Assembly (NCBI GenBank): GCA_025449635.1
Contig: JANWIZ010000036.1
Coordinates: 1-45,862 of the forward strand
DNA length: 45,862 nucleotides
Reading direction: 5' to 3'
Source: Patescibacteria group bacterium
GTDB taxonomy: Bacteria; Patescibacteriota; Microgenomatia; Woykebacterales; RBG-16-39-9b
Part shown: one piece after another, positions 26,719 through 35,959 of the stretch
Layout of the letters: each line of letters begins with the position of its first letter
How positions within the stretch are numbered: position 1 is the stretch's first letter
Translations under genes and position numbers: made by a program
Notes under the pieces: model-generated
Databases searched by the model: none
Told to the model about the DNA's origin: nothing
The model's input: only the letters and a program-made list of their open reading frames with translations

Positions 26719-27240
26719 TTGCAACAGAAAGGCAAATTGTGGTTTAGTAAAAGAGTGAACAATGATTATTTAAAAGGTAGCTTTCTAGCATTTCTGGTTT
26801 TAAGCGCGACAGTTGGATTAGTCTATTTGTCTCAAAACTTTTCTGAAACGAAATCATTTTCAAAAGTAAATACAAACTCAGAAAGGAAACTTCAGATCGG
26901 GTATACGACTATAACTGTGGAGACAGCCGATTCGCCAGTCGAGCAAGCTAAGGGTTTGTCTGGTCGAGAAAGTTTAGGAGAAAACCGTGGAATGTACTTC
27001 GTTCTAGAAAAAAGAGGGTTAATCAGTTTTTGGATGAAAGAGATGAAATTTTCGATTGACATCATTTGGGTCGACAGAGATACGATAATCGGTTTTGTCG
27101 AAAACGCCCCGCTACCATCAGAAGAGGGTATCCCAACTTTCAAATCTCCTTCTCCAGTAACCCACGTACTTGAAGTCAACGCTGGTTTTGTACAACAACA
27201 CGATTTGGAAGTTGGTCAGGAAATTGTTGAGCTAAAATAA
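26719..27240 (+). CDS. DUF192-family protein
   Basis: VETADS...AKGLSGR...GMYF...FWMKEMKFSIDIIW...VLEVNAG; N-terminal TM helix; start uncertain. Confidence 0.85.
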   Translation: MQQKGKLWFSKRVNNDYLKGSFLAFLVLSATVGLVYLSQNFSETKSFSKVNTNSERKLQIGYTTITVETADSPVEQAKGLSGRESLGENRGMYFVLEKRGLISFWMKEMKFSIDIIWVDRDTIIGFVENAPLPSEEGIPTFKSPSPVTHVLEVNAGFVQQHDLEVGQEIVELK

Positions 27241-27246
27241 TTAAGT

Positions 27247-28221
27247 ATGAAAATTTTTGATAGTGTTTACGGTGAATTTGAAGTTAAGGAACCAGTTCTT
27301 GTTGAACTAATAAATTCTAAACCACTCCAGCGAATCAAGGGCGTTAACCAAGCTGGTACCCAACTAGTTCAAATTGAAAAAACTACAACCCGATACGATC
27401 ACTGTACTGGAGTAATGATCTTACTTGCCAAATTTGGGGCAAGTTTGGAAGAACAAATTGCAGGATTGTTACACGACGTACCACACACTGCCTTTTCCCA
27501 CGCAGCAGATTTTGTTTTTAAAGAAAATGAAAGTCAAACCTATCACGAAAGGTTTTTAAAGCAAATTGTTTTTGATTCAGAGATTCCAGCAATTCTAGAA
27601 AAATACGGTTTTGACCCTGAAAGAGTAACTGATGAACACAATTTTACCCTTCTAGAACAAGATATTCCCCAGCTGTGTGCTGATCGTATTGATTACTCAC
27701 TCCGGGATATAGCTACGGATAAGATTTTTTCCGAAAATGATATTAAACATATTCTTGATTCAATTACTGTCTTCGAAGGTAAATTTGCGATGAACGATAA
27801 AAAAATAGGCTATTTTTATGCCAAAGCTTTTATGAATCAGTGTCTTAACTCCTGGAACGCGCCAGTCACTCTGACAGCCTTTGAGCTTTTCGGACAACTT
27901 GTCCGTCAAGCAATAAAAATTAAAGTTTTGACTGAGCAAGACTTGTTCCAGACTGATGATGAGGTTCTGGAAAAATTGAAAACTTCAGAAAATAAAGAGG
28001 TTAAGAATTTACTCTCTAAACTGAATCCAAATCTTTCTGTGGTTCACGATGAAATAAATTTTGACTTTGACACTAGAGGGAAGGTGCGCTACATCGATCC
28101 CCCAATACTAAAAAACAAAATTGTCACACCTCTTTCCAAACTAAATCCCGCCTTTGAGCGGGATATAGTTACCTTTATTCAGTTAGCCAAGGCTGGCCAT
28201 AAAATTCGAGTTATTTCCTAG
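27247..28221 (+). CDS. HD-domain phosphohydrolase (dNTPase-like)
   Basis: D.VYG, LQRIKG..QAG, RYDHC, LLHDVPH..FSH, CADRIDY. Confidence 0.88.
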   Translation: MKIFDSVYGEFEVKEPVLVELINSKPLQRIKGVNQAGTQLVQIEKTTTRYDHCTGVMILLAKFGASLEEQIAGLLHDVPHTAFSHAADFVFKENESQTYHERFLKQIVFDSEIPAILEKYGFDPERVTDEHNFTLLEQDIPQLCADRIDYSLRDIATDKIFSENDIKHILDSITVFEGKFAMNDKKIGYFYAKAFMNQCLNSWNAPVTLTAFELFGQLVRQAIKIKVLTEQDLFQTDDEVLEKLKTSENKEVKNLLSKLNPNLSVVHDEINFDFDTRGKVRYIDPPILKNKIVTPLSKLNPAFERDIVTFIQLAKAGHKIRVIS

Positions 28222-28879
28222 ATACTGCTTGAAAGGCATATTTATTAACTGTATTCACTACTATCCCAATCAAAACCAACGCCAAAGCTAGAGCTAGATT
28301 CCCGATCAAACCAAGATAAGAATCGTTCCCGGTTTGTGGAAGCTTAGTTACCGAAGATAACACAGTTGGAGTTACTACAGTTGTAGTAGCTGCAACAACA
28401 GTGGGGGTACCACTTGGTTGATTTCTGGTAGGCTCGACTATTGGCTTATTTACATTTGGTTTACAATCGTTTTCCACTGGTTTATTTACAACTTTCTTTG
28501 GTTTGTGACCGCACCAACCTTCGTTGTCATCTTCAAAGTCATCGTCATTGCCACAACCATTGTTACCATCTTGATCGGCTTTATCGACACCACCAGTACT
28601 TCCCGGTTTGTCAGATTTACCGTAGTTTCGCTCTGGTCCTTTAGAGTTGTTATCTGGATCAGATTTAGATTTACCTTGAGTGAAAGAGAGTCCTTTTTCA
28701 ATACTGCGATCTTTTCCAGATGGGTGAGAGTTGTCACCTTCATCAGGCTTGTCGTAAACTATTGAGGACTTTATTGGTTTGGAATGCGAATAGTTACCGT
28801 AAGAGGCAAAAGCCACCTTTGGCAATAAAGCTAAATTAAAAAGAAGTATTAACCCTATAATAACAGTTTTCTTAATCAT
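28211..28879 (-). CDS. Secreted LPXTG-type surface protein
   Basis: Signal peptide ending AFA, Asp/Gly/Asn-rich core, Pro/Thr linker, LPQTG plus TM helix and basic tail; promoter TTGACA-17-TAGAAT ends 7 nt before ATG 28879. Confidence 0.82.
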   Translation of the reverse strand: MIKKTVIIGLILLFNLALLPKVAFASYGNYSHSKPIKSSIVYDKPDEGDNSHPSGKDRSIEKGLSFTQGKSKSDPDNNSKGPERNYGKSDKPGSTGGVDKADQDGNNGCGNDDDFEDDNEGWCGHKPKKVVNKPVENDCKPNVNKPIVEPTRNQPSGTPTVVAATTTVVTPTVLSSVTKLPQTGNDSYLGLIGNLALALALVLIGIVVNTVNKYAFQAVSRK

Positions 28880-28886
28880 GGTAGTT

Positions 28887-28950
28887 ATTCTATCATATCT
28901 TATAGTATATGTCAATGTGACTTGACTCTTGCATAATCTTAGGGTAAAAT
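28887..28950. promoter_or_regulatory. Back-to-back divergent sigma70 promoters
   Basis: - strand TTGACA (28915-10)-17-TAGAAT (28892-87); + strand TTGACT (28922-27)-17-TAAAAT (28945-50). Confidence 0.78.
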
Positions 28951-28957
28951 GCTTTTC

Positions 28958-29265
28958 AGCTCAATTACCTTCGGGAGATTTTGAGATAGGCTCTTGGGCC
29001 TGCGAGAAAGGAAGATAATTGAGTTAGGGAAGACTCTGGTGTGGATGCCACAGAGAATAAAACTAGGAGTGAGACCTAGTCGGGGTTTGCCTTGATCCCC
29101 GTTAGAGCTTTCGTTCTCCAAGGACAGTGACTCATCTTTTGTGAAATAATGAGGAGATGAGTGGAGTATGTAAATCACACATACTTTGAGTCTGTTCTGC
29201 CAAAAACTTGCACGAAAAAGGGCTATCCCAACTCTGCAAGTCGTGTGTCTTCCCGAATTTTTTTT
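28958..29265 (+). ncRNA. Candidate large structured ncRNA-3 (~308 nt, family unknown)
   Basis: Helix 28958-67/29016-25. Long-range GGGAAGAC/GTCTTCCC (29027-34/29247-54) encloses at least 7 helices. U8 tract at 29258-65. Starts 7 nt after the -10 box. Confidence 0.75.
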
Positions 29266-29360
29266 AAATCGTAGCAACCTCAAATTTTCGTATTTAAATA
29301 TAAGCTCCCTAGGTATATACTCAAACTACTATATAGAGAGATCAGGAAAGGAGGTTTTCC

Positions 29361-29954
29361 GTGTTCCCAGAAAGCGGGCTGGGTTTTGACTTTCTGGTAA
29401 ATCAACCGATTTACTTGCGGGGTAGAAGAATTGTTGGTCCTTTAGTCAACAGTTACTGGCCCGCAACTTTCGTGCACATGGAGTCAAGATTTTCGAAGTA
29501 TTTTCTTTTGCTTCCTTTGGCAGCTTTTTTGGGAATCGAATGGGCGATTGGGATCATGCTTGTTTATGGTATGGGCTACACTTTGTTTTATGAGTGGCTT
29601 AGCTCTCGTGGCAGAATCCCAGAACCAATGGAGACAAACAATCCCGCCAAAGGGTTTATGGTTGGTCTCCAGCAGTGGGGTTACTCAAAAGTAGTGAAGC
29701 GGTTGGGTCCAGGAAGTTCGAACCTCGTCAAAATACCGACAATTGCTTTTGGAGCCTTAACTTGTGGTGGTGTGGTCGCTGTGCACTACTATATAAAAGC
29801 TGCGGGTTATTCAGGAATTGGGGCGGTAGTTGGTAATATGGCTTGCAGACTTGCTGCCATTCCGGAAAAGTTTCTGTATCTTAGTGGTCTGTCAATTGCA
29901 ATCGGTCTGGTCAAACCACAAGCTTTGCAAATACTGAGCGAGATCTTCAGATGA
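29361..29954 (+). CDS. Hypothetical membrane protein
   Basis: Several hydrophobic segments; SD AAAGGAGG before a GTG start; own terminator. Confidence 0.7.
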   Translation: MFPESGLGFDFLVNQPIYLRGRRIVGPLVNSYWPATFVHMESRFSKYFLLLPLAAFLGIEWAIGIMLVYGMGYTLFYEWLSSRGRIPEPMETNNPAKGFMVGLQQWGYSKVVKRLGPGSSNLVKIPTIAFGALTCGGVVAVHYYIKAAGYSGIGAVVGNMACRLAAIPEKFLYLSGLSIAIGLVKPQALQILSEIFR

Positions 29955-30007
29955 CAAGGTGTCTTTTTGCTGCAAAGGCAACGAAGACCCCTTGTCTTAT
30001 TTTTTTT
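29953..30007 (+). terminator. Intrinsic terminator
   Basis: GACAAGG.GTCTT..TTGC...GCAA..AAGAC.CCTTGTC followed by TTATTTTTTTT. Confidence 0.75.
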
Positions 30008-30023
30008 CAATAACTCCAAACTA

Positions 30024-30052
30024 TTTACCCTATAGAAATTATTTGTTATAAT
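30024..30052 (+). promoter_or_regulatory. Promoter of the two-gene operon
   Basis: TTTACC-17-TATAAT with extended -10 TG. Confidence 0.65.
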
Positions 30053-30125
30053 CTCACCCTAAAAGTAGCAAAGGAGGATTTTACAACTTAATAAAAACGG
30101 ACTAGTTCAAACAAGGAGAAGATCA

Positions 30126-30413
30126 GTGGAAATTTCAACTCTAAACACCCAAGAGGGAGACCGAAAGGTCACTCTCGACACCCGGAGCGTGAACGGTCGC
30201 AACACCGCCAAAGAAATGATCGAGAGTAAGCTCAAAGAGGGTGCAGCGCTCTTCATCAAGATCAACGGCGATGACTTTCGAGTCAAAGGCTACGACCCGA
30301 AGAAAGACGAGCTGATTGTGCGTCGCAACACAATAGTTGCTCGACAGCAAACGTTCCGTTACCCGGGTCACGAAGCGAAACTCACGATCGTTCCTCCCCG
30401 CGCCGGCGGCTAG
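30126..30413 (+). CDS. Small hypothetical protein with a ubiquitin-like C-terminal Gly-Gly
   Basis: 95 aa ending LTIVPPRAGG-stop; SD AAGGAG before a GTG start; 2 bp from the next ATG. Confidence 0.75.
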   Translation: MEISTLNTQEGDRKVTLDTRSVNGRNTAKEMIESKLKEGAALFIKINGDDFRVKGYDPKKDELIVRRNTIVARQQTFRYPGHEAKLTIVPPRAGG

Positions 30414-30415
30414 CA

Positions 30416-31246
30416 ATGCCTCCAAAAACACTCAATCTGGAAGCTCCTGGGACAGAGTTGCTTAAAGAAGCTCTCCAAGGTCCCAACGGGTATGGAGTAC
30501 CAAAGTATTTGAGAGGCTATCCTTTAGTTGGTCGGTCAGCTGGTGTTTTAAACGAGGTGTTTGAAATTAACGATCACCCCAAATCAGACTCAGTTTTCCC
30601 AGCACTTTCTGAACTTGAGTTTCGGGACAAGTTTCTTGGTCTAGCAATCTGGTCGATGAGCTGGGAATTTTGGGATAGGTTTTTCCCAAGATTTTTTGCA
30701 GCTCTAAGAAATGAAGAGTTGGGTTGGAGATACGTTAATACTTGGCATCCGAAAAAGGGGGTTAAAATCACTGTCTACCAGACAAGTGAGGGTGAGTACT
30801 TTCACATCCCTCTTCGAACATATGATGATCCTTACTCGCTGCTAATACGTACAAATAAGGTTTTGGTCCGAACTGGCAATGTAACTGCGGAGAAGAAGGC
30901 TAGGAAAAATCTGCTGTCTCATCTCAACAGACGACAAAGAAAAGAGCTGATTCTTACTGGTTGCTTTGTTGAGGTTGGCAAGAACCGAACCAACTACAGA
31001 ATTAGGTTTAACCGACCGACCATTGCCTTCCGCGAAACAAAAGGTAAGGAGGGTTTGCGGTACGAAGAGTTCGTAGGTAGCTATTGCCTCCACTCTCTTG
31101 GTTATTATTACGGTACTTTCGCTGGAGTTATGGCACCATCCGATGAAATGCTAGCTCATCTACTAATGATCCGTGCGGACGAGATTGACTTCTTGAAGGA
31201 AGCGAATAAGCATGGGCTGGAGGATCCCTTGGGAGGAGTGTCTTAA
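30416..31246 (+). CDS. Hypothetical protein, operonic partner of the GG-ending protein
   Basis: 276-aa ORF with C-terminal AEKKARKNLLSHL..Q..YRIR..YCLH..P.DEMLA.LLMI..DE..FL..AN; followed by a terminator. Confidence 0.75.
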   Translation: MPPKTLNLEAPGTELLKEALQGPNGYGVPKYLRGYPLVGRSAGVLNEVFEINDHPKSDSVFPALSELEFRDKFLGLAIWSMSWEFWDRFFPRFFAALRNEELGWRYVNTWHPKKGVKITVYQTSEGEYFHIPLRTYDDPYSLLIRTNKVLVRTGNVTAEKKARKNLLSHLNRRQRKELILTGCFVEVGKNRTNYRIRFNRPTIAFRETKGKEGLRYEEFVGSYCLHSLGYYYGTFAGVMAPSDEMLAHLLMIRADEIDFLKEANKHGLEDPLGGVS

Positions 31247-31274
31247 AAGCAGAACACAAATGTTCTGCTTTTTT
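31245..31274 (+). terminator. Intrinsic terminator
   Basis: AAAAGCAGAACA CAAA TGTTCTGCTTTTTT, a perfect hairpin. Confidence 0.85.
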
Positions 31275-31342
31275 CTTTTCTCTAAAACTTTACTACGCTT
31301 TGCTTGTAATTTTTTTATTGAATCTTTAGAATTAACTTTCTC

Positions 31343-32002
31343 ATGATAAAAGTTGAGAGTGTTTCTAAGATTTACAAAACAGGGGATAGCGAATTCAAGG
31401 CTTTGGATAATGTTTCGGTCGAGATCAAAAAAGGTGAATTCGTGGCTATTCTTGGACCTTCAGGTAGTGGTAAATCCACTTTGATGCATCTCATTGGCGG
31501 TCTCGATAAACCAACAAAAGGTACAATTGAGGTTGACGGTCAAATTTTAAACAATCTAAATGACAAGCAATTGGCTACTTACCGCAATCAAAAAATTGGT
31601 TTTGTCTTCCAATTTTTTAACCTTCTACAAGGAACTAATACCCTTACCAATGTGACATTGCCGTTAGTTTATTCAAAAAAGAAATTCAACCGCAAAACTA
31701 AAGCTGTTGAGATCTTAAAAGAAGTTGGCCTTGAGCACAAACTAAAAAATCGACCCAATCAACTTTCCGGTGGCGAGCAACAAAGAGTCTCGATTGCCAG
31801 AGCTTTGGTAAACGATCCAGATATCATTTTAGCTGATGAACCAACTGGAAATCTTGATTCTAAAACTGGTCTACAGATTTTTGAACTACTTAACCAACTA
31901 AATGCAAACGGTAAAACTATTATACTTGTCACTCATGACAATTCACTTGCCGAAAAGGCTAAAAGAATTATTCGTGTAAAAGATGGTGGTATTGAGGTTT
32001 AG
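31343..32002 (+). CDS. ABC transporter ATP-binding protein (LolD/MacB type)
   Basis: GPSGSGKST, LSGGEQQR, ILADEPTGNLD, VTHD. Confidence 0.95.
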   Translation: MIKVESVSKIYKTGDSEFKALDNVSVEIKKGEFVAILGPSGSGKSTLMHLIGGLDKPTKGTIEVDGQILNNLNDKQLATYRNQKIGFVFQFFNLLQGTNTLTNVTLPLVYSKKKFNRKTKAVEILKEVGLEHKLKNRPNQLSGGEQQRVSIARALVNDPDIILADEPTGNLDSKTGLQIFELLNQLNANGKTIILVTHDNSLAEKAKRIIRVKDGGIEV

Positions 32003-32004
32003 AT

Positions 32005-33228
32005 ATGGGAATTTTACTAGATAGCATCAAGATGGCTTTTTCTTCCCTACTTGCTAAAAAGGCGAGGAGTTTTCTCTCGATGCTAGGAATAGTCATTGGA
32101 ATTCTGACAATCTCCAGTTTACTTTCACTGGCATTTGGAGTGCGGTCTGAAGTAGAAAAGACCATCACAGATCTAGGTACTAATCTTGTAGCAGTGACGC
32201 CAGGAAAACAACTTAGCGAAGAAGGTGGTGCTAACTTAGCAGCTCAATTTGGTCAAAGTACTCTAACTGAAGAGGATTTTCTGGCAATCAAGGCAGAGGT
32301 TATTGATGCAAAAAAGATTTCTGTGGCTCTGCTTTTAACAGGCACGACTAGAGTAGGCGGTACAGTTTCAAACTCCGCGTCTATTTTGGCTGGTTCCCCA
32401 GGGTTCGAGGAAATCTTCAACCTGAGTCTCGATCGGGGTCGACAATTGAACCAAGACGATGAGGACACCAACGCTAGGGTCGTTGTCATTGGTCCAAAAA
32501 CTGCACAAAAATTGTTTCCCGATCAAAACCCTCTTGGTAAAATTTTGGAAATAAGATCGACTGAATTCACTGTAGTTGGACTTTTTAAGAAAATAGAAAC
32601 CGCTTCAAATATTGGAGGTCCTGACTTCAATGATGTCGTTATGATGCCCATCCACACTGGCTGGGAAATTACCAATACCAAATCAGTTTTTCGAATTGCA
32701 ATGCAAGCTCCAGATGCGGAGTCAGTTGAGAGAATAAAAAAAGAGGTCAAAGATGTCTTACTTAGAACCCACAAGGGAGAGGAAGATTTTTCAGTTCTAA
32801 CACAGAAAGATCTGCTCAAGGTCACTGGGGGAGTCTTGGATATTATGACCGCTTTATTAGGAGCACTTGCAGCGATTTCACTTTTGGTAGGTGGGATTGG
32901 GATCATGAATATTATGTTAGTTTCGGTAAGTGAAAGGACTAGAGAAATTGGTATCAGAAAAGCAGTTGGAGCAACACAAGGAGCGATATTACTGCAATTT
33001 TTGATTGAAAGTATGATCTTAACTTTGCTTGGTGGTTTAGTCGCGATTAGTTTTTTTACCTTTGCTATTAGTTTAATTCCAGCCGATTCGCCAATACCTA
33101 TCAAACTTAATTGGGGAGTACTGACGCTATCACTAATCTTTTCAGCGTTAGTTGGAATAATCTTTGGTCTGATCCCTGCAATTGGAGCAGCTCGTAAACA
33201 TCCAATCGATGCTCTTCGTTACGAATAA
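32005..33228 (+). CDS. ABC transporter permease (MacB/FtsX type)
   Basis: RSFLSMLGIVIG, GGIGIMNIMLVSVSERTREIGIRKAVGA, PIDALRYE. Confidence 0.95.
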   Translation: MGILLDSIKMAFSSLLAKKARSFLSMLGIVIGILTISSLLSLAFGVRSEVEKTITDLGTNLVAVTPGKQLSEEGGANLAAQFGQSTLTEEDFLAIKAEVIDAKKISVALLLTGTTRVGGTVSNSASILAGSPGFEEIFNLSLDRGRQLNQDDEDTNARVVVIGPKTAQKLFPDQNPLGKILEIRSTEFTVVGLFKKIETASNIGGPDFNDVVMMPIHTGWEITNTKSVFRIAMQAPDAESVERIKKEVKDVLLRTHKGEEDFSVLTQKDLLKVTGGVLDIMTALLGALAAISLLVGGIGIMNIMLVSVSERTREIGIRKAVGATQGAILLQFLIESMILTLLGGLVAISFFTFAISLIPADSPIPIKLNWGVLTLSLIFSALVGIIFGLIPAIGAARKHPIDALRYE

Positions 33229-33318
33229 ACACGTTTTTTAACAACACTACTTGACAGCAGTTCAAAAAAAGCTTCACAATAACAACATTATTAAATCTCC
33301 TGAAAGGAGAGCTGCCAA

Positions 33319-34017
33319 ATGAACACTTTTTCCCCAGTAGAAGCAATTAAATACGGTTGGACCACTTTTAAAACCAATCCAAGTTTTTTAATTAAATTAT
33401 TTCTGATAGTTTTTGCTCTGGAAATCGGTTTGAGTATGTTATCTCCAAAAAGCACCGCTTCAAATTGGCCTTTGGTAATGCTTATATCTATTCCGACAAC
33501 CATTGTTTCGATGATTATTTCGCTTGGAATGATTAATACGCTATTAAAGTTTGTAGCTACTGGAAAAGCAAGTTTCTCGGATTTATTTTCTGAGTTTACA
33601 AATTTTAAACTAGTTATTAACTATATTATTGGGTCAATTATAGTTGGACTGATTGTGATTGGGGGATTAATATTATTGATAATTCCAGGTCTTTATTTCG
33701 CAATTAGGCTCAATCTATTTGTTTACTATATTGTAGATAAGAACTTAGGTTATATGGAAGCTGTAAAAGCTAGCTGGAGTGCTACTAAGGGAAATGTCTT
33801 GAACCTAATGATTTTTGGAACCTTAAGCTTGGGGGTAATATTGCTAGGTCTTTTAGCACTTATAGTTGGCTTGCTTGTAGCCATTCCAGTAATTTCCCTT
33901 GCCGGAATTTATGTTTACAAGAAAATTTCTCAACAAGGAACTCAAGCGGCTGCTCCTGCAGAATCAACACCAATTCCTCAACCAACAGTTGAGCAACCTG
34001 TAACACCAGCTGTATAA
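33319..34017 (+). CDS. Integral membrane protein (DUF975/YciC-like)
   Basis: Multiple TM helices, LLLIIPGLY, EAVKASWSATKGN; SD AAAGGAG. Confidence 0.7.
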   Translation: MNTFSPVEAIKYGWTTFKTNPSFLIKLFLIVFALEIGLSMLSPKSTASNWPLVMLISIPTTIVSMIISLGMINTLLKFVATGKASFSDLFSEFTNFKLVINYIIGSIIVGLIVIGGLILLIIPGLYFAIRLNLFVYYIVDKNLGYMEAVKASWSATKGNVLNLMIFGTLSLGVILLGLLALIVGLLVAIPVISLAGIYVYKKISQQGTQAAAPAESTPIPQPTVEQPVTPAV

Positions 34018-34074
34018 GTCTATGACATAAATGCTCTATTTACTTTAATAAAAAACTTTCTATAATCATTTCAA

Positions 34075-34944
34075 ATGGCAATATTTCTTTCGATAATAGT
34101 TCTGATTTTTGGCGGACTTTTGGGGTTATTTTTTGCTGAATCCTCCCCATACCTGGCTTTTACAATTTGGGGGATAACTGTTTTTATTTCGATTTATGTC
34201 GCTTACGCTGTCAGGATTGCTAATCAGTGGGAAAAGCACGTGGTACTGCGAATGGGTCGTTACAGTGGTTTGAGAGGACCCGGACTTTTCTTTATTATTC
34301 CAATTTTAGACAGAGTTACTTACGTTCTTGATCTTCGTACTCAAGTCTCTACTTTTGATGCTAAGCAGACTCTTACCAAAGATAATGTACCAGTTGATGT
34401 TGATGCAATTTTGTTTTGGAGAGTCATTGACGCTGAGAAAGCTGCTCTTGAAGTAACCGATTACTGGCTAGCGGTTACTCAAGCGGCACAAACTGGCCTG
34501 CGGGATATCATTGGTCAAACCGAACTTTCCCAAATGTTGGCCGGCCGAGATGCAATTGGTACTAGTTTAAAAAGTTTGATAGATGGGCGAACAGATGGCT
34601 GGGGAGTCGATGTATCAAGTGTTGAGATCAAAGATGTGATTATCCCAGCAAACTTGCAAGACGCGATGTCCCGTCAGGCTCAAGCAGAAAGAGAACGTCA
34701 AGCTCGAGTGATTCTAGGAGATTCGGAAAATCAAATCGCTGACAAATTTGCCCAAGCAGCAAAAAAGTACGAGGGCAATCCAGCGGCAATGCACCTTCGC
34801 GGTATGAATATGCTCTATGAAGGGATGAAGGATAAGGGTTCTTTGATAATTGTGCCTTCTAGTGCAGTTGAATCAATGAATCTTGGCACTATTGCCGGAT
34901 TAGCAGCGATAAATAAAGAAAATAATCGGGACGAGAAAAAATAA
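34075..34944 (+). CDS. SPFH/band 7 (slipin) family protein
   Basis: GPGLFFIIP, LTKDNVPVDVDA, AQTGLRDIIG, AMSRQAQAERERQA. Confidence 0.93.
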   Translation: MAIFLSIIVLIFGGLLGLFFAESSPYLAFTIWGITVFISIYVAYAVRIANQWEKHVVLRMGRYSGLRGPGLFFIIPILDRVTYVLDLRTQVSTFDAKQTLTKDNVPVDVDAILFWRVIDAEKAALEVTDYWLAVTQAAQTGLRDIIGQTELSQMLAGRDAIGTSLKSLIDGRTDGWGVDVSSVEIKDVIIPANLQDAMSRQAQAERERQARVILGDSENQIADKFAQAAKKYEGNPAAMHLRGMNMLYEGMKDKGSLIIVPSSAVESMNLGTIAGLAAINKENNRDEKK

Positions 34945-34949
34945 CTAAT

Positions 34950-35360
34950 CTACTCCAAACCAAATTCTTTGAGATCGATTTTCATTGGGCCATCAGTAAA
35001 GAATTTTCCAATTGACTCAAGTACCTGAGAGGGGAGGAAACGAGCTTTGAGAAGATATCCTTGGGCGCCAATCTCAACTGCCTGTTTGATGATAGAACCT
35101 TGTCCTAGATTGGTAAGTAAATACACTGGGGTATTTTTATAAGGCTCCGGGCTAGCTCTTAACTCTCGTAAAACATCAATACCAGTTTTTTTGGGAAGCA
35201 TGATATCGAGTAAAATCAAATCAAATTGCTCTGAAGTTGCTTTGTCGATCCCAATTTGACCGTCTTCAGCCAAAACAATCTCATAATCACCTTTCCTGAG
35301 TTCTCGAGAATAAATATCTCGAACAAAAACATCATCTTCAACCAAAAGTATTTTTTTCAT
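34950..35360 (-). CDS. Single-domain response regulator (CheY-like)
   Basis: ILLVEDD, DLILLDIMLP, LTN, YLLK. Confidence 0.92.
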   Translation of the reverse strand: MKKILLVEDDVFVRDIYSRELRKGDYEIVLAEDGQIGIDKATSEQFDLILLDIMLPKKTGIDVLRELRASPEPYKNTPVYLLTNLGQGSIIKQAVEIGAQGYLLKARFLPSQVLESIGKFFTDGPMKIDLKEFGLE

Positions 35361-35419
35361 AGATTAAGTTTGTAATACCTTTTTCATTATGACAATGACT
35401 ATCAATCTTGTCTAGGTGT

Positions 35420-35959
35420 TCACTTTTTCTTTTTTGAAGTTGCTTTTTTATCCTTCTGACCAAAGCGAGAAAAATTCGATACTGTTGTTATTGATCCGGC
35501 AGGAATGATATGGATAGTCCCGTCTTCTTCTTTTAACCAAATTGTTCTCAAAGTCAACTTAGTAACAATTCCTTTCTTTCCAGAAATTTCAATCTCATCA
35601 CCCTCGTCAAACTGATCCTCAACCAAAAGAAAAAAACCAGTAATTATATCTTTTACTAGTGTTTGCGCTCCAAAACCGATTGCCAAACCAACAACTCCTG
35701 CGGAAGCAATGATAGGAGTAATATTGACACCAACTGTTGCCAAAGACTCAAAAATCGCAAACCCTACAATCAAAGTCGAACCAAGCGTACGCACAATTGA
35801 ACTTAGAGTTCGGAGCCGCCTTCCACTGGGGCTACCTGAAGAAATTCCCCTTACAATCGAGCTCGCCAAAAGTTGAAATACTACCCAAATTGCAACTGCC
35901 AAAACAAAAATATAAATCAAACGCAAAGTATTGTGATCCAAAAGAGCTGAGTAAATCAT
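35420..35959 (-). CDS. Short MscS-family mechanosensitive channel
   Basis: ASAGVVGLAIGFGAQTLVKDIITG, GDEIEI..G.V, IP...I..VSN. Confidence 0.88.
   Translation of the reverse strand: MIYSALLDHNTLRLIYIFVLAVAIWVVFQLLASSIVRGISSGSPSGRRLRTLSSIVRTLGSTLIVGFAIFESLATVGVNITPIIASAGVVGLAIGFGAQTLVKDIITGFFLLVEDQFDEGDEIEISGKKGIVTKLTLRTIWLKEEDGTIHIIPAGSITTVSNFSRFGQKDKKATSKKKK

Follow-up and report, generated by a model that had tools for sequence, protein, structure and literature searches.

A conserved, mostly phage-borne two-gene module pairs a Gly-Gly-ended small protein with a Cys-x-His partner of probable E2-type fold

In a 45,862-nucleotide stretch of a Patescibacteria group bacterium (assembly GCA_025449635.1, contig JANWIZ010000036.1, positions 1 to 45,862; hereafter the window), two adjacent genes on the forward strand encode a small protein of 95 amino acids with a GTG start and the C-terminus KLTIVPPRAGG (30126..30413, TAG stop), and a large protein of 276 amino acids that carries the motif Y223-C224-L225-H226 (30416..31246). 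We found that this pair is a conserved, mostly phage-borne two-gene module, the products of which are predicted to form an extensive complex that brings together the Gly-Gly tail of the one and the Cys-x-His domain of the other. In its general design the module resembles a ubiquitin-style tagging pair that does without the usual activating enzyme (E1). The interpretation that we prefer, to which we give slightly less than an even chance, is that the two proteins constitute an obligate heterodimer of phage origin that performs E1-independent acyl chemistry on the Gly-Gly tail. No description of the pair was found in the literature searched, and Pfam, NCBIfam, PHROGs and PADLOC provided no consistent family name for either protein.

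Both proteins belong to extensive families. For the large protein, 8 of the 544 candidates of a word-indexed search reached E ≤ 0.001, counting the window's own protein, and a 13-sequence profile searched against 1.84 billion cluster representatives matched 823 clusters (50% identity) at E ≤ 0.001, 523 at E ≤ 1e-10 and 462 at E ≤ 1e-30. For the small protein, the first search exposed a single relative (P0009, 74% identity), and a 43-sequence profile then retrieved from 4,962 candidates 1,418 proteins, clustered at 90%, that reached E ≤ 0.001. Relatives are present in Novosphingobium records. Weak single hits to DraK_HK_N (0.017), REase_II (0.046), phrog_11360 and phrog_23871 were rejected, being absent from other family members. 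Sequence searches of the PDB with the large family returned nothing at E ≤ 10, and those with the small family returned Kelch-repeat and designed-repeat proteins, which were likewise set aside as they contained zero significant stretches and reflected a short G-x-x-Y-D-like pattern that recurs in propellers.

The two genes travel together, and the pair goes well beyond a chance finding. Among bacterial and archaeal genomes, sampled at one per species, 7 of 39 pattern matches encoded a relative, six of which had an open reading frame (ORF) ending in Gly-Gly upstream, the seventh (L006) being a fragment. In IMG/VR viral contigs, 39 of 95 pattern matches encoded such a relative; 30 of these had an upstream Gly-Gly-ending ORF by position, and a hidden Markov model of the small protein detected the small gene in 37. 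When the window and 47 loci were tallied uniformly (48 in all), both genes were adjacent on one strand in 45, in the order small then large in 41 and large then small in 4 (L013, L022, L038 and L041), while in the 3 loci that lacked the small gene (L006, L037 and L046) just a C-terminal fragment of the large gene was present. The intergenic spacers were mostly short or overlapping, about 24 of the 36 measured falling between -29 and +5 nt with start sites being approximate, and one of 155 large-family proteins (P0099) was a natural in-frame fusion in which the small domain runs through VSGG into the large protein (VSGG-LDEV).

The end of the small protein is conserved just as strictly. Gly-Gly followed directly by the stop codon closes the small gene in 44 of the 45 loci that have one (codons 30405..30410, forward strand, in the window, where the stop comes next), and a Gly-Gly C-terminus is found in all 120 of its best database relatives, in which the last four residues are TAGG (73), SAGG (29), VAGG (7), TSGG (4), RAGG (4), ISGG (2) or IAGG (1). 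The sole exception among the loci, L013 (L013:8540-8941), has 20 more residues after Gly-Gly in a Cys-rich extension, and this extended form could be an unprocessed precursor or a read-through artefact. An earlier sequence-only reading of the window had named conservation of the terminal Gly-Gly, conservation of the Cys of YCLH and recurrence of the gene pairing as checks on its proposal of a modifier and its enzyme, and all three came out in its favor, C224 and H226 being present in every one of 130 aligned partners. The (I/V)xPPxxGG tail, which it had called typical of MoaD/ThiS/SAMP/Ub-like proteins, turned out to be confined to a subgroup from small genomes, the family consensus being AVAVAR[TS]AGG.

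In an alignment of 43 sequences, the small protein consists of an N-terminal part of about 65 residues, a linker and a tail. The N-terminal part contains (I/L)LNVGxGDxK(L/V)xFD, a helix with (R)AAxxVxDM(L/I)(R/K)RGY, and then more strands; the linker has 0 to about 50 residues and is first acidic and then basic; and the tail has the consensus (R)(V/I)xAxxx(R/K)AVAVAR(T/S)AGG. Residues G11, G94 and G95 are invariant, and L6, D12, G39 and A93 are present in at least 90% of sequences. An AT-hook-like motif (RGRP, GRPP, GRPR or GRPK) occurs in the linker of 13 of the 43 aligned proteins and 47 of the 120 best relatives (for example L005:5452-5817, L021:1840-2253 and L044:7418-7783), the Pfam AT_hook model matches 5 of the 43, and the motif hints at DNA binding. 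In the window copy and its close relatives the linker is very short and lacks the AT-hook, and the tail reads IVPPxAGG. One 120-residue member (P0169) is named 'Ribonuclease G/E' in one source, probably a low-complexity artefact of its charged linker. No Pfam family of ubiquitin-like (Ubl) proteins, ThiS/MoaD included, matched any of the 43 members, and neither sequences nor profiles lend support to a beta-grasp fold in the small protein.

The large protein was aligned for 130 sequences, drawn from the 136 proteins of 215-300 amino acids among the 155 stored. Its N-terminal half is variable except for a conserved G27-x-P29. Nine residues are invariant (E159, A162, L166, Y194, P201, C224, H226, P241 and E256), and G27, P29, F184, E186, S190, R197, T202, A204, L223, P227, Y231, G237, D243, H248, L249, R253, W260 and G274 are each present in at least 90%. 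The C-x-H motif itself, encoded at 31085..31093 (forward strand) in the window as Cys224-Leu225-His226, is kept in all 155 stored members, 143 of which also fit a stricter pattern.

The predicted structure of the complex places these two conserved elements in one interface. The predicted complex of the small and large proteins scored 0.84 (0.85, 0.84 and 0.84 in individual runs), while the best of three controls scored 0.00; as a rough guide only, obtained with our own alignments, 116 of 157 solved complexes attained 0.84, as did 2 of 215 mismatched pairs. Contacts agreed between runs at 96% or more, and the partner had a predicted local distance difference test score (pLDDT) of at least 88. 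The prediction speaks for binding, short of proving it. On the large protein, the predicted interface comprises residues 19, 23-30, 38-45, 49 and 53 on the N-terminal side and, in the C-terminal domain, 155-169 (with E159 and A162), 189-190 (S190), 224-230 (C-L-H-S-L-G-Y), 238-240, 243-257 and 262-264. On the small protein it comprises 3-13, 15, 31, 35, 38, 41, 43, 45, 49-52, 66-73 and 87-95, the last of these stretches being the entire tail with G94 and G95. Among the residue pairs with low predicted error are T87 and V89 with residues 246-251 of the large protein, and P90 with L228. The pattern of interface residues in the small protein would be compatible with a beta-beta-alpha-beta-beta-beta order, which we infer from that pattern alone.

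The C-terminal domain of the large protein (residues 139-276; 30830..31243, forward strand) probably has a divergent UBC/RWD-type fold. The AlphaFold2 model built from the 130-sequence alignment has a pLDDT of 89.8 and a predicted template modelling score of 0.81, and replaced a poor first model from an 8-sequence alignment (pLDDT 54). It has three parts, namely an N-terminal segment, a unit of one helix and three strands (83-134), and the C-terminal domain, in which helices (139-181) precede a four-stranded meander (183-187, 193-197, 202-209 and 215-224), followed by C224-x-H226-P, a flap and a long helical part (241-262). With Foldseek, no PDB entry matched at E ≤ 0.001, and one unnamed viral protein (4e-4) matched in BFVD. 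The likeness to UBC, RWD and UEV domains is weak. Domains of the ubiquitin-conjugating enzyme (E2), RWD and UEV types made up 11 of the 50 Foldseek matches shown (Ubc9, Atg10, CdnG-E2, six RWD domains, VPS37A and Vps23), 3 further matches were kinetochore or BRISC entries that possibly share this fold, and a second structure search again returned the Mad1 C-terminal domain and Atg10. By sequence spacing, and without superposition, H226-P227 stands at the place of the H-P-N motif of E2 enzymes.

Taken together, we propose the following arrangement. The small protein would be a compact domain of about 65 residues, with a flexible basic linker and a conserved 10-residue tail obligately ended by Gly-Gly. 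The large protein would clamp this domain through a G-x-P segment on its N-terminal side and a long helix on its C-terminal side, and the tail would enter a pocket lined by E159, S190, C224-x-H226, D243 and E256 in a domain built like the UBC/RWD (E2-type) fold. Cys224, helped by His226, may then act on the terminal glycine by forming a thioester that is subsequently transferred or hydrolyzed, with no dedicated E1. In phages, the module would serve an accessory function of the early or replication region, and in the small genome of the window it would stand by itself, as a cassette equipped with a promoter and a terminator of its own.

On our best reading, the closest analogues of such chemistry would be the E2-only type of the cyclic-oligonucleotide-based antiphage signaling system (CBASS) and the E2 of the Bub system. 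In E2-only CBASS (bioRxiv 10.1101/2022.05.25.493364; PDB 8hsb), a stand-alone E2 takes the C-terminal tail of its cGAS partner into a pocket, requires Cys101 and His87, cleaves after Gly406, and passes through a thioester to an isopeptide bond with no E1 involved. The differences are that the E2-only CBASS partner is a 400-residue nucleotidyltransferase that works in host defense and has one residue after the Gly, whereas the partner here is a small phage protein that ends exactly in Gly-Gly; and that the Cys of the E2 is in the canonical flap position there, with a defined Lys acceptor, whereas here the Cys lies two residues before H-P and there is no conserved Lys. A PDB sequence search found no similarity between E2-only CBASS and the large family, and the PADLOC models of CBASS matched none of 130 large-family members, the partners of which are proteins of 95-140 amino acids without a Pfam domain and not CD-NTases.

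In Bub (6E/DUF6527), a Ubl-E2 fusion is cleaved after a Gly and the E2 acts through S333-x-H335 together with an E1 (PMC11601596). The likeness is in the Ubl and E2, which are adjacent or fused and split after a conserved Gly, in the pair of a nucleophile and a His separated by one residue, and in the helix that follows S-x-H, where D-D-I-x-T-H-L-x-x-V-R in Bub parallels D-E-V-I-A-H-L-L-x-I-R here. Bub differs (PMC11601596) in needing an E1 (BubCD or BubBD), BubE and usually a JAB peptidase, in having Ser rather than Cys, and in its beta-grasp Ubl. Via DUF6527, which matched in 11 of 401 genomes of the phylum Myxococcota, we located five Bub operons and used their E2 and Ubl parts for profile comparisons, which were not significant; homology is thus not shown, and the parallel between C-x-H and S-x-H serves as a lead only.

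Other systems share single features with the module. Bil and type II CBASS (Cap2/Cap3) are likewise prokaryotic systems that conjugate through a C-terminal Gly in the conflict between phage and host, but they are host-encoded and always accompanied by an E1 domain and a JAB peptidase, neither of which was found here. MoaD, ThiS and SAMP proteins are small beta-grasp proteins that also end in Gly-Gly, but act with ThiF/MoeB adenylation enzymes in sulfur transfer, while in the family here there is no such enzyme, cofactor gene or Pfam ThiS or MoaD match, and the tail is preceded by a long disordered linker. A sulfur-carrier role was set aside on the grounds that there is neither an E1 nor cofactor genes, and a sortase-type signal or the leader signal of a ribosomally synthesized and post-translationally modified peptide on the grounds that Gly-Gly is at the extreme C-terminus and there is no membrane segment. 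RWD/UEV and 'inactive E2-like' domains are the best structural neighbors of the C-terminal domain, but they lack a conserved Cys, while here C-x-H is invariant; the RWD-like inactive E2 domains of bacterial polyUbl operons are described as binding Ubl moieties without catalysis (PMC1779556). The same source reports that the Ubl-type tail assembly protein I of lambda-type phages adjoins protein K, which has JAB and NlpC/P60 domains (PMC1779556). That arrangement is also one of a phage-encoded Ubl-like protein beside a peptidase, but the I/K pair lies, as described there, in the tail module, while the present module occupies replication or early regions and contains neither a JAB nor an NlpC/P60 domain.

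Searches for the missing partners of a classical pathway came back empty in the window's assembly and in viral genomes. The sequence-only reading had noted that no E1 or JAB gene lay nearby, and this held across the whole of the window's assembly (760,548 bases in 46 contigs, 83% complete), in which neither ThiF nor Prok-JAB was matched, the ThiF-family E1 at E ≤ 0.001. At E ≤ 0.01, ThiF-family proteins were found in 0 of 10 viral records, 6 of which were rated 100% complete by CheckV, while the same search detected them in 12-14 of 14 reference genomes. Prok-JAB (PF14464, the sole JAB family searched) was found in 0 of 5 genomes, these being the window's own and 4 complete viral genomes.

Several results weigh against the interpretation that we prefer. 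The small protein is encoded already ended by Gly-Gly with a free carboxylate, and with no ATP or E1 the formation of a thioester has no obvious energy source. Neither protein has an invariant Lys in the alignments of 43 and 130 sequences, and thus there is no fixed acceptor. The predicted interface is very large (about 140 contacts), which would fit a permanent complex better than a transferable tag. The sequence-only reading had proposed to check whether the Gly-Gly docks at the Cys of YCLH, and here the tail and the C-x-H segment do share one predicted interface; the large-protein residue contacted by Gly95, however, is not given, and because the complex output provides no such contact we infer, rather than read from the model, that the Gly95 carboxylate reaches Cys224. 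The invariant Cys precedes the His of H-P by two residues instead of occupying the canonical E2 position; by sequence spacing, no conserved Cys lies in the flap about 10 residues after H-P-N, where catalytic E2 enzymes carry it, and 12 residues after the His the canonical position is unconserved (A42/V26/S17/C15/T10). The large family compared with BubB gave an hhalign probability of 0.9-1.2% over 12 columns, for a thin BubB profile of 5 sequences, and the only stretch aligned was the helix after the nucleophile; the small family compared with the Bub Ubl gave 0.2%. The single-protein structure models cover the large protein.

The genomes in which the module occurs bear on the alternatives as well. 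Its nearest protein-language-model clusters are viral (Uroviricota), and it sits mostly in the replication and DNA-modification regions of uncultured phages. Annotation of 121 proteins at 10 loci, 4 more having been dropped where a crude gene caller missed the large gene, identified as neighbors DnaB helicases, a UvrD-type helicase, an IstB-like ATPase, an ERF recombinase, C5 and N4/N6 DNA methylases, SNF2 and ResIII helicases, a HerA-like ATPase, an HD protein, DUF1643, DUF2303 and DUF4326. DUF5131 (Gp37/Gp68) was present in 3 of these 10 loci, and its cluster in 7 of 47 sequence sets (the window and L001-L046). Apart from DUF5131, no neighbor was common to more than 4 of the 47 sets; the unit of conservation is the pair itself. 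The phage origin that the sequence-only reading had entertained for the pair is well supported by these viral clusters, the relatives on viral contigs and the phage-type neighbors, while its suggestion of a role in defense fared less well, since the usual context in phage replication and early modules points to a function on the side of the phage instead.

Individual loci added further observations. In L005, the DUF5131 gene directly downstream of the pair (L005:6555-7946) has two family stretches that flank an HNH_3 endonuclease domain, an arrangement which suggests an inserted homing-type element. L029 encodes a phage protein of 2,270 amino acids (L029:8695-15504, minus strand) with an N6 DNA methylase and an SNF2 helicase, and a weak intein-splicing match inside the helicase. 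In L026, a complete phage genome of 106 kb, a TnpB/Cas12f-like OrfB_IS605 gene (L026:11914-13083, minus strand) lies near the module.

In the leading alternative, the two proteins would form a purely non-covalent complex that acts in phage DNA replication or regulation, the tail being a docking peptide like the conserved tip of the single-stranded DNA-binding protein, the Cys and His structural or metal-binding, and the basic or AT-hook linker a tether to DNA. The module does lie among DnaB, ERF, UvrD and IstB-like proteins, DNA methylases and DUF5131, many small proteins have the RGRP-type motif or a Pfam AT_hook match, the predicted interface is very extensive, RWD and UEV domains are non-catalytic binders, and neither an energy source nor an E1 was found. 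We consider this alternative somewhat unlikely. The strict invariance of C224, H226, E159 and E256 (130/130), and of Gly-Gly, fits catalysis in a narrow cleft better than docking, the AT-hook is absent from the window's own small protein, and the substitution of H248 in 9 of 130 large proteins argues against an obligatory Cys-His-His metal site.

At the other extreme would be a phage-encoded, self-sufficient tagging machine, in which the E2-like Cys-His enzyme loads a dedicated Gly-Gly partner, often tethered to DNA by an AT-hook, and tags phage or host targets early in infection, without E1, ATP-dependent adenylation or JAB. This more ambitious form of the acyl-chemistry interpretation we regard as unlikely.

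More doubtful still is the idea of the large protein as a cysteine peptidase or deconjugase specific for Gly-Gly, which would mature a precursor or strip Ubl-type conjugates of the host (Bil, type II CBASS) as a counter-defense, with the small protein as a product mimic or regulator. The early-region position of the module in phages suits anti-defense genes, the E2 of E2-only CBASS has just such a Cys/His peptidase activity, and the fusion P0099 and the extended L013 protein are rare forms that look unprocessed. Yet 164 of 165 small proteins (120 relatives and 45 loci) are encoded already mature, so that processing cannot be the main role; structure searches of the large protein matched no papain-like or JAB-like fold; and it would be left unexplained why a phage keeps its own Gly-Gly protein glued to the enzyme.

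Very improbable, in our view, is a canonical Ubl and E2 that borrow a MoeB/ThiF-type E1 of the host for adenylation: a Gly-Gly terminus is the classical E1 substrate, and among three larger genomes with the module ThiF genes exceeded the family cut-off in two and gave a sub-threshold match in the third, but the window's genome keeps an intact, promoter-equipped pair with no ThiF match at 83% completeness, the predicted complex has the tail bound by the partner and not free, and known Ubl families show no similarity in sequence.

Searched with tblastn, the window's protein had no match in 50,697 GenBank phage records and a viral homologue had one, Virus Rctr197k (L050, KX853510, record 112351-121176), and cultured phages, judged from these searches, appear hardly to carry the module. 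The copy in Rctr197k is divergent, with C-V-H and a partner that ends in IPG. In this virus of 197 kb the module adjoins an annotated CRISPR repeat region and transposase-like genes, and a second, shorter paralogue (record 114873-115610) resembles the small domain fused to the C-terminal C-x-H domain. Of 60 genomes related to that of the window, 2 of 16 from the same family and 0 of 44 others had the module, and both carriers also had the small gene. One same-family carrier, L001, shows synteny with the window; the ABC transporter proteins at its flanks are 74-79% identical to those of the window, and the pair just 48-49% (49% for the small protein). The label of the L001 record, 'uncultured Gammaproteobacteria', may be unreliable, given that it shares the gene order of window positions 26719-35959 and belongs to the same family.

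The layout noted from the sequence alone, with a promoter, a Shine-Dalgarno sequence, the ORF ending in PPRAGG, a 2-nt gap, the ORF with YCLH and a terminator, is present in full on the forward strand. A sigma-70-like candidate promoter, TTTACC-17 nt-TG-TATAAT with 10 of 12 matches, lies at 30024..30052; it is the sole promoter-like site upstream of the pair, and one of 4 that the scan picked out, compared with a mean of 1.6 in shuffles. The Shine-Dalgarno sequence AAGGAG (30113..30118), read from the sequence, precedes the GTG at 30126 by 7 nt, and the spacer between the two ORFs is CA. A read-through or frameshift fusion was set aside, as the large gene is in a different frame after TAG-CA. 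An intrinsic-terminator-like hairpin followed by a T-run (31245..31272) stands directly after the stop codon, and it is this placement that lends the candidate weight, because the scan for the pattern gave 2 sites against 1.5 expected from shuffles, a count that by itself is not significant.

The G+C content of the pair is 0.472, compared with 0.395 for the whole window. The pair is flanked by genes of an ordinary cellular kind (DUF192, an HD-domain protein, an ABC/MacB-type transporter, a DUF975-like membrane protein and a Band 7 protein), and no phage genes adjoin the pair in the window. Upstream of the pair, G+C is also raised at 28950-30000 (0.45-0.47, compared with about 0.37-0.40 in its flanks), a stretch that contains a hydrophobic ORF of 197 amino acids (29361-29954) without a Pfam family. 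By blastn and tblastx this stretch had no counterpart in the syntenic loci L001, L047 and L049, and it may belong to the same acquired island as the pair. Rfam had no match at window positions 28800-31400.

The recent link between bacterial Ubl conjugation and anti-phage defense comes from Bil, type II CBASS and Bub, which are all host-encoded and nearly all E1-dependent. The module described here is mainly phage-borne and nameless in every library searched, and it keeps two hallmarks of such chemistry, the Gly-Gly end and the Cys-x-His of an E2-like domain, both of them invariant, with no E1 or JAB found. If it is catalytic, it would extend the E1-independent 'E2-only' chemistry to viruses and provide a minimal system for the E2-type handling of a glycine carboxylate. 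If it is non-catalytic, it would still represent a widespread phage heterodimer of the replication region, and would show how a cassette of this sort is kept in genomes reduced to 0.8-1 Mb. Were the self-sufficient tagging machine true, no smaller ubiquitin-style conjugation system would be known, and none before it would have been on the viral side of the bacterial Ubl arms race.

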